Shown here one piece after another: positions 57,001 through 63,000 of a DNA stretch of 64,000 bases. Position 1 is the stretch's first letter. The number at the start of each line of letters is the position of its first letter. Made by a program: the position numbers. The DNA is from a virus, in the UHGV virus genome UHGV-0180032, one strand, 5' to 3'.

Positions 57001-60000
57001 TTAACTTAGGGTGATTGTACCTTATTTTGTATAAACCGTCTTAGAACTCGTTCTAGCGCGTTTTACGGACAAAATAAACCTACCCTCCTGCTAAGCAGGA
57101 GGGTATTTATTATTCTACCGGGTGCAACATAGTGCCGGTATCTGGAATGCTACCTTCGTGACATCTGAAGAACGTTACACCTTTACCTTCACCCGTTTTG
57201 TAGTTGACAGTAGAATACGCAAACGTTGGGGTTTTCGACAGTAACCCGTTTACACGGTAATAGCGCTCACCGGTAACAACGTTTAAGTTACCGTCCACTT
57301 TACCTAACAGGTCTTTATATAGTTGCGGAGATTCAATTTTACCTTCGTCCCATGTAGCGACCCAATTCGCCCCTGTATCCATGACTAACACCGAAAGGGG
57401 CATCAGTTTTAGGCTAGACGGTACCGGTTTAAAATCAACGAATTCTTGAGAAGCACCTGTACAGGTGTAAATGACCATATCGTGTTGGTCAACAGGTACG
57501 GTGGAAAACTGACCTTCCGCGTTCGGCTGAATAGCACAACTTGCCAACGTCATTACAAAAGCAACGACCACGAGAATGCGTTTTAGCATAAACTCACCCT
57601 TATTAAAATTAAGAAAAAATAATTTTTTCAGGTTAGCGCTTACTGCCAACCGTCATATCTATATTTTAGGAAATGTCTAAAATAACATTCTTATGCAATC
57701 CACCCCTACCACTAACGAGGTAAAAAAAGATGGCTAAAGCCTTCAAACAACAGCTCAATTCGTCTGGCTTCTCAAGACCTGATCGGTGCCAAAGCTTACG
57801 AACAAGCCGGTAGCCTCGATCTGGAAAACTCCGTCATCGTAACCAAACTGAACGAAGAAATGGTTACTAAAGGTTATGTCGATGACGCATTCGCCGAAAG
57901 CGAACTGTCCATTGAGAAATCCGAAGGCGACAGCGGTGCTAAAGTCTACACTGTCAAAGTAAGCGAAGGCCACATCAAATTCCTGGCTGGTACTATTGCC
58001 GTCTTCACTTATTCCAACCCAGCTCCTGAGAAGGTAGCACTGAGCGGTCTGGAAGGTGAACTTGATGGCTTCACTGCACCGGGTGTCGGTGGCTAATTAA
58101 ATCGGGGGGGGGTGACCTCCCCCGATATTTCTCTAACACGTATTATTAAGGACCTAGATAATGGCCGCTACTAACCAGATGATGTTGGTCGCGCTTTATA
58201 ATGCTGCTAACGCTGAGCTACCGCATCAGATTACAGATAAAGAAGTGTCCTTTGGTCTCCCTACTGCGCTGGAAGGCGAAAGTAAGAATACCAAAGTTAC
58301 CATGACTGCACTACCGGGTTCTGAGAATTTCAAAGGCGAAATCGAACTGCATTACGATCGTCTGGAACCAGGTGTTGTAGGACGGATTGAACTAACTGAC
58401 GATCTGTCTCGCTGGGTTCAAGAAAATGAACTCCGCGCTTGGTTACAATATTACATCAACAAAGTAAAACCTGACGACGCTATCGCACCAGGCGACGTTG
58501 TGTACAACACCGAAGACCAGAAAGACGAACATGAAAACGTCACTCTGCGTACCGTGACGTGCACCGTTACTGAAAAGAACCTCCGTTATAAACCGGGCGT
58601 AATGGCAACCTTCGTAATTACACCGAAGGTTGTCGATAATCGTATTGACCTGGCCACCACCAACGGTGAGTTGGACGGTTTTACTGCTTAATCGCTAAGT
58701 CAACTACTATAACAAAAAATAATAAGTTTACCTACCTCCTTTACGGAGGTAGGTATTTTTTTATTCTAATCCCATTTCCAGTGCAAGAGCACGGATCGTG
58801 TCGTAGTCACGCTGTTCAGCGTACTGACGAATTTCACGTTTCTGGGCAGACATCGCGTTGTGTAACTGTTGGTCACGCTTCACAATAGCCCCCATCAACG
58901 CTTTACATTGCTCCAGCGTAAACGGTTCTATACGTGTATTCGACGTGTCCAGCCAATAATCCGGTGCAGTTTCAGACTGGATATATTGGCCCAGCATCTG
59001 ACGAGAGGTTTCGTCAGCTTGGAAATGACGACCGTCAACTTCGATGTAGCCGTGACGCTGGTCTTCGTAACGGTGTTCAATTTCCAACATGATTTTCTGG
59101 ATATCTAAATAGATATAGCGAGACGTCGAACGCATATTCGAACGAATCTCATCCAGGTCAATCTCCAGAACGTCAGTAATGAATTCTTTTGCTTTATTCA
59201 GTGTAAACTTCGACTCGATAGGAGACATTTCGTAAGTTTGCATCTGGGCTAAAGCTTCTTCATCACTCATCCCTTCAATCAACTTGTAGTGCAGTAAAGC
59301 ACAGAACCCCGTACGTCCACGGACTTCGTTACCTACACGTTCCATGTAGTTACCGTGGCGGTCAATTGGGAGATCGTGAGCGAAATAACGCGCGCGAATC
59401 TCTTCCTTCGTTAAGCTTTTGTTAGAAGCAGACATTCTTCTTCTCCAACCATACCTAATTCTTGCAGCAAGCCAAAATCAATCAACTGGAAGGTTTCAGA
59501 GAGATCGTTTGACCACACCACGTTTGCAATGTCGCGTTCTTCATCCGTTAACTGCGGTAACACACTTTCGTTGAACGTCTGATGCTCTACGTAATACGCA
59601 TCGTAGATAGACGTGGAACGCAAACAACGGATGGGTAGACGCGGGAAAGACACCGCTAACGCAGCAATAGACGCGCTGCTCGGATTCTCCGCTGAATAAC
59701 GAAGCAGTTCGATTTTGTGGCGTGGGTAGTCCAGTACACGTTGTTCGAAACCCGGATTACGTTTTTCGATTTCCACAACGGACTCATGGCCTGTTTCTGT
59801 GCAGTAAACAGGAATCATCACGTTTAACCCGTACTTAATCAGCAGGGGTTTAATCTCATCTGTAAAGTCTTCACCAGGGATAATGGCGTGGACGTTATAG
59901 AGTTTGTGTTTACGCAGAAAACGCTCAACCAGGTGGAGTTTACGCTTCGTAAAATTGTGGATCAGAATTGATTTCATTATTTGCCTCAGTAGGTTGTGCA

Positions 60001-63000
60001 TTTAACGCACGTTTAGCTTGCTCACGCTCACGCGTACATTTCGGACAGTAACAAACAGACGAATCGTGCAGTGACGACGCGTGGACGGTACCTGTACGTT
60101 GACGCCAGTATTCTGCTGCCATCAGTTTGGCGGTCGTCCAACCACATTGACGACGTTCAGCGTGGTACGCCTTACGGTCTTCCAGTGTCCCTTCACCGTT
60201 TTCGTAGGATGCGGCCGCACAGCTCCCACAACCGTGTTTCATCGGACAGCCTAAGCACGTTTCAGGATAGTTGGTGTATTGCGTCTGAATCTCTTCCAGC
60301 AGTTTCCCACCGTCTAAGCTAACAAACTCACGACCGACTAACTCAAACACCGCAGAACGTGACGTTACCGTTGACATAAACCGGTTACAACCGTACACCT
60401 TACGGTCAAAACCTAAGCAGGTCATAAACGTCAACGTCCCACAGAACGGACGTAAACGTTCAGGGTTATAACGGTGCGTGTCGTCGTACAGCAGTTTATC
60501 GCGCCAATCCGGGTCCCAAATCTGACGGAAATCCAGACCTTCAGGAATGATGTGGGACAACACGTTACGTGGGTTGGTGTGCAGTCCTTTCTCAATCCAA
60601 TAATCCATCACCTCGATCATCTGCAACGCAATATCCGTCGCCATGCTTCGTGGAAGAATATCTTCGTACGTCACGTTACCTGAAATCGTACCGCCACCGG
60701 CAATATCGATTAACGACTTCATACTCGCCGCGTAATGCGGTAAGGTTTCGGACGTAAAGGTTGCCTTAATACCCAGTTCGGCGATACCCACTTCTTTTAA
60801 GTAGTTATAGCCACGAACAGCGGCTTCGTAAGAACCCTGACGCGACGTGGTAAAGATACGATAGCGGTCATGGACTTCTGGCAACCCGTCGATAGAAACA
60901 CCGATGGAGAGTTTGTCTTTCCAACGCTCAACAATCTCACGGTTTAACGGACGGTCTAACAACGTCCCGTTCGTGGAGATACTGAACATATACGGGCGGT
61001 TATGCTCCTTACACAGCTGTTCTGCGGTTTCAAACGCCGCTAACAGCAGTTTCGGTTGCATAAAAGGTTCGCCGCCGATGATATCAATAATGACGTCGAT
61101 GTTCGGAATATCTTTGTCACGCTCAAAACAGGCGTGTAAGAAATCCACGATATCCGCCGCTTTGTTATTACGCGGATACTTACGTTCGTAACAATACTCA
61201 CAGTCTAAGTTACAAGACAGGTTCGTTACCACCTGGTAAGTACGTTGTGAACGTGGTGCTTCATTATTGCTCATCTTTGCTTATCCTTTTACGCTCTGCA
61301 TAAATCACGCGTTTAATGTACTCGTAAGCACCTACCCCGATAGAGCAAGCAAGCTGATTGCACCCACCCTTTAAGATAGCCGGTGCATTCTGAAGCTGAT
61401 GTTCTGTTCCATCTGCGTTCAAATACAACTCTTCGCTACAGACATTACACTCGTTTTCGAAAATCTTGCTGACAGACACACCGCACGATTCTCCAGTTTG
61501 GACGTTCAGCCGTTCCATATTCTCCTGAATCTTTAAATAACCATAAACGAAGTTCATGATGTGATCGGGAGACAACGGTTTTGGCATTTGGGCATCAAAC
61601 ATCAGAGAGAACGCACGGGGACGATAGTGGTACATTGCACGATGCAGTTCCACAATATCTTCATACCAGCGCTTATCGGCTAACTGGTCACGCGTAATCA
61701 CAGCCCAGGTTTGGAAGTTATCGAGTTCGTATAACGCTTCCAGTGCTTCGTGGCTATCCTCTTCAATAAAGCGTATAAAAGGACGCTCAGAACGCTTGTA
61801 GCCATCAATTGATACAAACACATGCTCAAAGTCTTTTAGCAGCGTAAGATGCGATTTACGCAGCTTTAATCCGTTGGTATACAAGTGATGCTCAAGATGC
61901 GGATGAGACACTTTCAATTCGTTAACGAAATCCTCAATCTTACGTTGGACGAGTAGCGGTTCTCCACCGGTCCAATGTATTTCCTTAATAGCTGGATTCT
62001 CTTGTAGTAATTCCAGGATACGTTCGCGTTGAAAAGCACGAGACGAATCTTCACGATTCATGTAGTAGGCTCCACCGCAGAAACTACAGTCTAGGTTACA
62101 CTTAGACGTCGTAACTACGGACAATATAGTGGGTTTATCGTACAACTTCGTCGAGATCCTGGATTCCACATTGTCTATCATTGCAGGTTGCTCCAGTATT
62201 TTTAAATATAATCGATGGCGAATAAAGGATCTTCGTCGAAGTTAACACCGGGTTTTAAAATCAGTGGTGAATTATACGCTTCCAGTAAACGGTTAAGTTC
62301 GTTGTAGCGGCTATTCATCCGTTTGAGGTCTTCTAAGGTTACAACACGGTCCAGCATCGGCTTAACCGCTTCGGCTTCTTCGTCAGTCAGCTTAACTTTC
62401 GACAGCAAGAAACTAACGAGTTTGGAAATGTCCGCTTCGGTAGCTGGGCTCTGACCAAAACGTACCTGAACCATATGCTGCATCCACGGTTTACGAATGC
62501 GTTTCGTAATTACGTGTTCGTCAGTAATGGCTTTCCAAACCGAACGTTCACGAATCCATTCAAACTTATAGCTGTAAGCCATTAAGTCAGCCAAATGCGT
62601 AATTCCGAGTTCTTGATAACCTTCAATATCGATATACGGTTCCGTATCGAAATACTCTTTGGTATCCTTCTCGACCAACGCGTAGTAGTTAGGGAATGCA
62701 CCCAGGTAGTCTGGACTCCACCAACGACGCGCCATCGGTTTAGCATCGAGTTCTTCAAACGGTGTGAACATAAGTTCTAAGTCAACTGTATTATTTAACA
62801 CACCGTCGCTAAAGAAATATTTACCATCGATAAGTTTACCGCGTTGTGAGTTGTCACCGGTAAAGACAACGATGCTTTCGCCAACCATGTCACGAATTTT
62901 GAACGTATTCTCAACCGTAAAGTTGTCACGATTAGCGATATGACGACCACGCACTTTCGGCCATTCCCCAGGAATCATGGCAATTAAGCGTACATCATCA

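Follow-up and report, generated by a model that had tools for sequence, protein, structure and literature searches.

A radical SAM enzyme pair encoded beside cysteine-repeat proteins in the tail-fibre region of an SPN3US-like jumbo phage and in other phage lineages

Among the characterised radical S-adenosylmethionine (SAM) enzymes, CteB and PapB, which make thioether cross-links derived from cysteine (Cys), stand closest to the enzymes considered here. A further precedent is the SPASM enzyme QhpD, which cross-links QhpC, the small gamma subunit of quinohemoprotein amine dehydrogenase, by Cys-to-Asp/Glu links at defined acceptors. The TIGR04115 family of NCBIfam, which is closer still in sequence, was defined in silico, and no experimental work on it or on the clade described below was found in the literature. 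Here, we analysed two adjacent radical SAM genes on the minus strand of the UHGV virus genome UHGV-0180032, of which a stretch of 64,000 nucleotides (nt), hereafter the window, was available. We propose, with moderate confidence, that the two enzymes encoded at 59940–62181 are the catalytic pair of a four-part phage module that cross-links Cys-repeat proteins of the tail fibre or of its tip.

Radical SAM genes of phages have so far been read mainly as metabolic. The two genes considered here are common to the phages SPN3US, PhiEaH2 and CR5 and absent from phiKZ (supplement of PMC5105663), the SPN3US products gp163 and gp164 being published only as "putative radical SAM", and the Campylobacter phages CP220 and CPt10 (~175 kb) were reported with 11–12 radical SAM genes of unknown role (PMC2853527). 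Such genes have been suggested to "enhance host metabolism" (PMC6614189; PMC2853527). Papers on SPN3US-like and Campylobacter phages speculate on host metabolism only, and no description of a radical SAM pair with a Cys-repeat tail-fibre module was found in the searchable literature.

The enzyme pair and its cysteine-repeat neighbours

At 73–75% DNA identity and with identical gene order, the window region resembles that of Salmonella phage SPN3US and related phages (Seoulvirus, phiKZ-like jumbo phages) and is, judged by this match, part of an SPN3US-like jumbo phage. An initial annotation had read 59940–62181 as two adjacent radical SAM enzymes with distinct auxiliary-cluster domains, and both open reading frames (ORFs) are found exactly there: a protein of 444 amino acids (aa) at 59940–61274 (−), the orthologue of SPN3US gp163 and a member of phrog_1802, and a 305-aa protein at 61264–62181 (−), the orthologue of gp164, the two overlapping by 11 nt. 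Both pass the radical SAM model PF04055 (53.2 and 55.3 bits, respectively, against a gathering score of 29.5), have CX3CX2C and GGE-type SAM motifs that do not vary among their aligned homologues, and share ~83% and ~70% amino-acid identity, respectively, with SPN3US gp163/gp164-type orthologues. Erwinia, Cronobacter, Escherichia and Proteus also have Seoulvirus-like jumbo phages with homologues in identical gene order. Searching 50,697 deposited phage genomes gave homologues in 63 records at E ≤1e-10, all but one of them (62/63) SPN3US-like jumbo phages of Erwinia, Salmonella, Escherichia, Cronobacter or Proteus; a 226-kb contig in a Salmonella assembly is the source of a deposited protein identical to the 444-aa enzyme, and IMG/VR likewise contains identical loci. 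The pair belongs to a tightly packed minus-strand block (58761–64000) in which all genes point in the same direction and several overlap by 11–62 nt. Transcription runs from three Cys-repeat ORFs through a 295-aa protein, the 305-aa enzyme and the 444-aa enzyme to a 196-aa protein and a DUF4376 ORF.

The translation of the 444-aa enzyme contains 'SCNLDCEYC' (C21/C25/C28), 'IIGGEPF', 'FCGTLTFMTC...YGC' and 'CLGCPMKHGCGSC', and its CX3CX2C cluster motif (61191–61214, −) is invariant in 22 aligned homologues. Membership of the SPASM group was judged by 7–8 C-terminal Cys including CX2CX5CX3C, two auxiliary [4Fe-4S] clusters and an anSME/CteB-like fold. The corresponding region at 60144–60443 (−), C278, C286, C296...C340-X2-C343-X5-C349-X2-C352...C377, lines up in the fold search with the SPASM domains of CteB and anSME; in it C296, C340, C343, C349, C352 and C377 are invariant, C278 is nearly so and C286 is present in most homologues. 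All eight Cys are kept in homologues down to 26% identity, and the spacing CX2CX5CX2C is a variant of the SPASM pattern. The assignment of individual Cys to clusters follows the arrangement in the anSME and CteB structures. On alignment and model, the protein is a full SPASM enzyme with two predicted auxiliary clusters. The Pfam model PF13186 gave no match at E ≤10 on the isolated C-terminal region, which says little because the same model also misses a bona fide TIGR04115 member (L107; L numbers are our labels for comparison loci).

By sequence, the best NCBIfam family for the 444-aa enzyme is TIGR04115 (126.2 bits against a cut-off of 350), followed by PapB (NF047865; 111 bits against 340), with other SPASM peptide maturases trailing behind and all far under their cut-offs. 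Its only sequence relatives in the PDB are CteB (the best, E 1e-12) and ChlB. The AlphaFold2 model has a mean predicted local distance difference test score of 87.6, and Foldseek ranked CteB first (5wgg/5why; E 2e-15, template modelling score 0.63), then ChlB, anSMEcpe and TigE, over ~400 aligned columns. No N-terminal recognition element (RRE) of the kind found in maturases of peptides that are ribosomally synthesised and modified after translation (RiPPs) is present, nor is there room for one, because the radical SAM motif already begins at residue 21.

The auxiliary region of the 305-aa enzyme is short, so that the distinction between the two C-terminal domains holds: a full SPASM domain in one and a truncated, twitch-like domain with three conserved Cys in the other. 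Its translation contains 'KCNLDCSFC' (C28/C32/C35), 'WTGGEPLL', 'SCGVSVSKIFENECNVCS' and 'GGCNQLAC', and the CX3CX2C motif (62077–62100, −) is again invariant in 22 homologues. The pattern C-x11-C-x2-C...C-x4-C noted in the initial annotation stands only in its core: C245, C248 and C274 are invariant in the 22 homologues, and the first and last Cys, C233 and C279, vary. The invariant set, C245-X2-C248...C274 (61360–61449, −), is a candidate site for a single auxiliary cluster and lies in a segment of beta-hairpin plus helix in the predicted model; the homologues in loci L005 and L006 have C-X-C...C in its place. From alignment and model, the protein resembles radical SAM enzymes of a truncated, twitch-like type and probably binds one auxiliary cluster. 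Its fold matches include SkfB, MoaA and BtrN, but full-SPASM enzymes rank higher; viperin is also among them. The epimerase EpeE was met in the fold searches as well, and anSMEcpe is among the best matches of both enzymes.

Against NCBIfam, the short enzyme gave generic matches only, at 39–52 bits against cut-offs of 131–380 (tungsten-cofactor maturase, MoaA, HxsC, a twitch-domain protein, viperin, QueE, NrdG). An identity as MoaA (47.8 bits against 284), QueE (40.8 against 260), NrdG (NrdG2; 39.2 against 131) or viperin (40.6 against 180) was rejected on these scores and on the fold ranking. The block in the window and the related loci contain no pathway partner genes of QueE, NrdG, MoaA or viperin. 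The view that the pair is not of the queuosine or ribonucleotide-reductase type is thus borne out, and strong homology to tRNA- or DNA-modifying radical SAM families was not found in these comparisons.

The three Cys-rich ORFs upstream on the same strand agree with the multiple precursor types named in the initial annotation. They comprise paralogue C (68 aa; 63239–63445, −; phrog_6085, E 1.9e-25), paralogue B (131 aa; 63456–63851, −; phrog_6085, E 1.6e-42) and paralogue A, of which the last 45 codons and the stop lie at 63861–64000 (−) before the window end cuts off the rest, and which is complete in the identical phage contig L088 (130 aa, 21 Cys). Paralogue C is kept in SPN3US and in one Erwinia phage; its N-terminal part, ~49 aa long, is followed by CNGSCSWACSGSC. 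In paralogue B an N-terminal part of ~50 aa ending in 'NNADLFGGRNRAHYD' is followed by 20 Cys, mostly C-X3-C, up to the C-terminus, and the protein scores 17.6 bits against the CXXX-repeat model TIGR04114, just short of the cut-off of 20. The N-terminal part of the SPN3US Cys-repeat ORFs includes a tryptic peptide such as '...ATNNADLFAGQGR'. Spacing within the repeats is mostly three residues; they are rich in Cys, Ser and Thr, hold almost no Asp or Glu and lack the sulfatase motif C/S-x-P/A-x-R.

That the Cys frame could be an artefact of low-complexity DNA was rejected by a codon-position test. Between paralogue B and its SPN3US counterpart, differences at codon positions 1/2/3 number 32/28/78, synonymous changes outnumber non-synonymous ones by 53 to 36 and all 20 Cys are kept (20/20); the frame is a real coding frame under purifying selection. 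Only one weak tandem array (21 nt, 2.4 copies) is found in the DNA of the Cys region, and the repeat is old at the protein level, with no recent expansion. Public annotation has missed these genes or misread their frame, in SPN3US (L003 8409–9438, equal to SPN3US 143,191–144,220, with one Cys-repeat ORF at L003 8631–9035) as in loci L001, L002 and L004: SPN3US_0166/gp100 (111 aa) is an out-of-frame ORF over a true 134-aa Cys-repeat gene, SPN3US and SPLA1a have no annotation for the 130-aa and 68-aa paralogues, and in Erwinia phage pEa_SNUABM_29 two plus-strand 'hypothetical proteins' are annotated antisense over the Cys-repeat genes.

The fourth component is the 295-aa accessory protein (p295; 62202–63089, −), which corresponds to SPN3US gp165 and phrog_8030. 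Its conserved C-terminal part (approximately residues 160–278) defines a small family that is always located in the module, with 40 cluster representatives among 1.84 billion proteins. Accessory proteins of ~220–295 aa are homologous across the module loci (phmmer/hidden Markov model (HMM) E 1e-4 to 1e-47) and adjoin the enzymes in L005, L006, L091, L093–L095, L168, L169 and L171. No Pfam or NCBIfam match and, with a 19-sequence profile, no PDB relative was found for p295. Its gene position suggests that it may be a substrate-presenting factor replacing the missing RRE.

Recurrence of the module and its tail-fibre context

The same four parts, a Cys-repeat protein, a p295-family protein, a short radical SAM enzyme and a SPASM enzyme, occur together in at least nine other phage or prophage lineages, and relatives of the SPASM enzyme at 27–40% identity are found in genomes unrelated to jumbo phages. 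A P2-like prophage of Campylobacter pinnipediorum (L006) encodes, in this order, baseplate J, Tail_P2_I, a 384-aa tail fibre, a protein of 250 aa, the SPASM enzyme, a radical SAM enzyme of 284 aa, a DUF1353 protein and a sheath gene; its tail fibre (PF12571, E 1.8e-40) has the repeat stretch '...GCNGCSGSCSGSCSSGCTACSGCSGSC...' and ends in the 38 residues 'GCNGCSGSCSGSCSSGCTACSGCSGSCSGKSDGCGCRHS'. In a prophage of Deferribacter abyssi the order is a GpJ-like protein, a 302-aa fibre-like protein with HxH-containing repeats and 28 terminal Cys spaced C-X2-3, a protein of 250 aa, a radical SAM enzyme of 263 aa and lastly the SPASM enzyme. The IMG/VR contigs L091, L093, L094 and L095 have the same arrangement with Cys-tailed proteins of 260–482 aa, which in L091, L093 and L095 match tail-fibre PHROGs N-terminally and phrog_6085 C-terminally. 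Overall, the Cys repeat forms the C-terminal end of proteins of 260–709 aa in unrelated phages; matches to tail-fibre families were obtained for four of these proteins (L006, L091, L093, L095).

Across the module members, the repeat reaches to within 12 residues of the C-terminus in every case and follows one of two junction motifs. The first, 'NAD-x-(L/F)-x-G-x5-Y-x-C-x2-3-C-(S/T)-(W/F)-(S/T)-C', is found in the jumbo phages, Deferribacter, L094 and L095, and the second, 'F-(D/N)-G-(S/T)-x5-(I/L)-x2-G-C', in Campylobacter, L091, L093 and L171, in which it prolongs the final repeat unit of the fibre. The repeat domain of the jumbo phages takes the form of three small paralogues, each with an N-terminal part of ~50 aa bearing the first motif.

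Four homologues were also picked regardless of their cysteines. Three gave complete modules (L168, L169, L171), in each of which an ORF with a Cys tail and a member of the p295 family (E 1e-19 to 1e-47) accompany a short radical SAM enzyme and a SPASM enzyme, and the fourth was a divergent locus. A same-strand ORF with at least eight closely spaced Cys lies within 4 kb in 93 of the 99 loci with a clade-like SPASM enzyme (at least 100 bits to the module HMM), against 3 of 68 loci with a generic SPASM enzyme; the latter set, from a generic-motif contig scan and consisting mostly of unrelated enzymes, served as the negative control. Searches by k-mer with the short enzyme and with p295 gave jumbo-phage relatives only, and it was gene neighbourhood that led to their distant members. 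The short and SPASM enzymes form a single fused polypeptide in L093 (686 aa) and in L171 (668 aa), each fusion having two CX3CX2C motifs.

Two of these loci show further features. The divergent one, L170 (2398–7251), has two SPASM-type paralogues (392 and 416 aa) on either side of a 674-aa protein, has no p295 homologue and contains only a short acidic Cys-containing stretch, '...DCSDSYYCSYCDSWDCGGEGC'; it may represent a different type of substrate for the same enzyme clade. L169, a phage contig of ~170 kb, carries two genes for S-adenosylmethionine lyase (PF23780; L169 1234–3502) ~3 kb upstream of the radical SAM module, an apparent conflict with the SAM-dependent enzymes beside them.

In every lineage examined, the context of the module is, by gene annotation, tail-fibre-related. 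In tailed phages the C-terminus of the fibre is its distal end, and because the repeat is C-terminal in the fibre proteins it would form the fibre tip. On the same strand, the jumbo-phage Cys ORFs come immediately after homologues of SPN3US gp168 and gp167. SPN3US gp168 is a tail protein (PMC5105663), gp167 and gp168–171 correspond to phiKZ ORFs 134, 145, 133, 131 and 130 (supplement of PMC5105663), and in phiKZ gp131, gp133, gp134 and gp135 make up the basal complex of its tail fibres (PMC13250141). The window's small Cys ORFs are tentatively assigned to the fibre by this position and by the shared junction motif, the fibre domains themselves being carried by relatives and not by the window ORFs. 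The rest of the window region encodes tail fibre, tail protein, virion proteins, endolysins and a DUF1353 protein. A 1541-aa tail fibre at 40225–44850 (+), with many fibre-repeat PHROG matches, ends in a Peptidase_S74 intramolecular chaperone domain; as read from this domain, at least one fibre of the phage also takes the classical, auto-cleaving route of maturation.

Downstream of the enzymes, the 196-aa protein (59411–60001, −; SPN3US gp162, phrog_7988) has phmmer matches in eight loci, all of the jumbo-phage clade. The last gene of the block encodes a 224-aa DUF4376 protein (58761–59435, −; SPN3US gp161; PF14301, E 1.5e-10; phrog_8169) with weaker matches to tail and tail-fibre PHROGs, and a DUF4376 gene also comes after the radical SAM pair in L169. 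A strong hairpin at 58729–58755 (unstranded; 11-bp stem, T-runs on both sides) between the convergent gene blocks is likely a bidirectional terminator that closes the minus-strand block against the plus-strand genes. The DUF1353 protein (phrog_1158, 'tail assembly chaperone') lies near the pair in the window (55822–56496, +) and in L006 (8068–8433); it was rejected as a core part of the module, because outside the jumbo clade and the Campylobacter prophage it is absent from the module loci.

Among the remaining neighbours, three paralogous DUF7941/phrog_1037 'virion structural protein' genes (53719–54567, 54581–55060 and 58161–58691, all +) flank the endolysin and radical SAM region. The ORF at 57860–58096 ends in 'ELDGFTA' like the one at 58161–58691, which suggests a further member of this family, and is followed at 58101–58126 (+), upstream of 58161–58691, by a terminator-like G9/C5-rich hairpin with an 11-bp stem. 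An isolated ORF at 57110–57649 (−; 179 aa, phrog_9559) has a lipoprotein-like N-terminus, '...VVAFVMTLASCAIQ', and is kept in SPN3US relatives.

A cross-linked fibre tip and its alternatives

In the proposed explanation, the Cys-repeat proteins would be made late in infection along with the products of the neighbouring tail-fibre and baseplate genes, and p295 would present their conserved junction motif to the two enzymes, which lack an RRE. Both enzymes would then act, together or successively, on one repeat region. The SPASM enzyme would most likely build a ladder of intramolecular thioethers (sactionine- or ranthionine-type) from the Cys sulfurs, and the short enzyme could carry out a second radical step, such as a second type of cross-link, epimerisation or the like. 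The outcome would be a compact tip, braced by covalent bonds and resistant to proteases and redox change, on a virion tail fibre or fibre-associated protein. We infer that the Cys-repeat proteins are the substrates of both enzymes, and the 'precursors' are probably structural proteins of the fibre tip rather than secreted peptides. As to the earlier suggestion of sequential or substrate-specific modification, cooperation on one substrate is favoured because the enzymes are fused in L093 and L171, the pair occurs with a single substrate gene and L091 has the SPASM enzyme only; the idea of one maturase per precursor type finds no support.

Several points weigh against this explanation. The 444-aa enzyme scores below the curated cut-off of every named family, and the assignment of thioether chemistry, putative for all members, is by analogy with CteB and PapB. 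Because C286 is retained in most homologues, the first auxiliary cluster may well be fully ligated like that of anSME, and not open like that of CteB, which weakens a strictly CteB-like mechanism. The Cys repeat conserves no acceptor residue of the kind that Asp provides in PapB substrates. The jumbo-phage Cys-repeat proteins are separate small ORFs (68–134 aa) with a leader-like N-terminus, which would also suit a released peptide, and their presence in the virion is putative. L091 has no short enzyme, which is therefore not always required, and many of the viral loci come from one metagenome, so that locus counts overstate the number of independent lineages.

There are two other readings of the repeat proteins. 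Their small size (68, 131 and 130 aa), with an N-terminal part of ~50 aa and then a repeat core, would fit a classical RiPP cluster, as implied by the initial annotation, in which the ORFs are leader-core precursors of a released ranthipeptide- or sactipeptide-like toxin, signal, anti-competitor or anti-defence agent; several paralogous precursors are typical of such clusters, and the nearest enzyme families are RiPP maturases. However, neither the block at 58761–64000 nor the related loci contain a leader peptidase, exporter or immunity gene, the enzymes have no RRE, and the block sits between tail-fibre genes and the tail-like DUF4376 gene. Moreover, the 'leader' bears the motif of the fibre-repeat junction, and the same repeat and motif end proteins of 260–709 aa (four with tail-fibre matches) in phages with the same enzymes and accessory protein. 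We therefore consider a released peptide unlikely. The second reading invokes an anSME-like oxidase or another non-cross-linking maturase (Cys or Ser to formylglycine, epimerisation, side-chain editing), the repeat being held by disulfides or metal. While the anSMEcpe fold matches of both enzymes, the eight auxiliary Cys as in fully ligated anSME clusters, the Cys-, Ser- and Thr-rich repeat and the EpeE epimerase among the fold matches speak for it, the anSME family model gives 56.8 where its cut-off is 349, the repeats lack the sulfatase motif, and TIGR04115, PapB and CteB outrank anSME by sequence and fold, which makes this reading improbable to a similar degree. That the enzymes are unrelated to the Cys ORFs and instead serve auxiliary metabolism or modify nucleic acids or cofactors in the manner of QueE, NrdG, MoaA or viperin, as the weak matches of the short enzyme to these families and to tungsten-cofactor maturase, the MoaA and viperin folds and the metabolic role speculated in the literature (PMC6614189; PMC2853527) might suggest, is very improbable given scores far under all curated cut-offs, no partner genes nearby, and a tight lineage-independent linkage to Cys-repeat ORFs and p295 plus a fusion with the SPASM enzyme, both unexpected for a free-standing enzyme.

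A cross-linked fibre tip could extend well beyond the jumbo phages. Phages of several unrelated lineages, namely enterobacterial jumbo myoviruses, P2-like and lambda-like prophages and gut Firmicutes phages, may use radical SAM enzymes to put RiPP-type covalent cross-links into receptor-facing fibre tips, a generalisation that we offer tentatively and hold at somewhat less than an even chance. Tail-fibre tips decide host range and are a main target of phage engineering and bacterial resistance. If the proposal is correct, it would be the first radical SAM post-translational modification of a virion structural protein and a new type of virion maturation, adding a layer to fibre assembly beside chaperones and auto-cleaving domains, and it would explain why these fibres may not fold or function when expressed without neighbouring genes. 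It would also give a testable function to five conserved SPN3US genes (gp161–gp165) and to three unannotated or mis-annotated ORFs, and would correct the annotation-level assumption that phage radical SAM genes are "metabolic". CXXX-repeat radical SAM systems would then largely be phage tail-fibre maturation machinery and not natural-product clusters, which would provide a biological role for radical SAM systems known only from genome mining. The C-X3 repeats would offer very regular substrates for the study of SPASM chemistry.

Comparison with known systems

The closest likeness is to the TIGR04115/TIGR04114 systems, in which a SPASM enzyme without an RRE adjoins a protein with Cys at about every fourth residue. 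However, the window enzyme reaches 126 bits and its closer relatives 147–188 against the TIGR04115 cut-off of 350 and the 434–474 bits of bona fide members on viral contigs; this low score sets it apart as a separate clade, a sister group of the TIGR04115 family. The window clade adds a second, shorter radical SAM enzyme and a p295-family protein, whereas TIGR04115 loci have a single radical SAM enzyme and an unrelated ORF of ~200 aa, which showed no homology to p295 (hhalign probability 0.2). The Cys repeat of the window clade is shorter (4–28 Cys) and is usually the C-terminal tail of a fibre, as opposed to up to 92 chained Cys in TIGR04115 loci. Most of the other IMG/VR matches (25–29% identity) are bona fide TIGR04115 enzymes, and the three loci of this kind that were checked (L099, L155, L142) lie directly after baseplate-hub, baseplate-wedge or tail-fibre genes; the tail-module association thus seems to extend to the whole in-silico family. 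In Candidatus Termititenax aidoneus (Margulisbacteria; L008 5384–9158, with similar loci L009–L011), a 672-aa protein with 69 chained Cys and a TIGR04115-like enzyme (275 bits) are encoded directly downstream of genes that resemble flagellar fliF/G/H/I/J (N-terminal sequences only), and Cys-repeat/radical SAM systems may also decorate extracellular filaments other than those of phages. SPASM matches in Wolbachia phage WO were rejected as an unrelated glycosyltransferase fusion.

HxsB/HxsC, an in-silico NCBIfam system, also combines a SPASM enzyme and a shorter non-SPASM radical SAM enzyme beside a short-period repeat peptide. The 444-aa enzyme scores 74.5 bits for HxsB against a cut-off of 370, and the 305-aa enzyme 47.1 bits for HxsC against 268. 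The window repeat is C-X3 and not H-X-S, the context is a phage tail-fibre region and p295 is specific to the window module.

Among the experimentally characterised systems, CteB is the best solved-structure relative of the 444-aa enzyme by sequence and fold, and its SCIFF-type substrates are likewise rich in Cys. Unlike CteB, which has an N-terminal RRE, the window enzyme lacks this domain and scores 55.7 bits for the SCIFF maturase family (TIGR03974) against a cut-off of 425. For PapB and freyrasin, the family cut-off of 340 is likewise not reached and the window repeats are without the CxxxD/E acceptor motif. The putative substrates differ from those of both enzymes, being structural fibre proteins or parts of them rather than peptides of ~45 aa (six Cys in SCIFF), and a second radical SAM enzyme is present. 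QhpD, for which the family match is 55.3 bits against a cut-off of 453, is the precedent of a SPASM thioether synthase whose substrate protein is not released but remains in a larger assembly, yet substrate, organism and context all differ. What sets the module apart from each of these systems is that two radical SAM enzymes and an accessory protein go together with probable Cys-repeat fibre tips, a combination that is conserved and previously undescribed.

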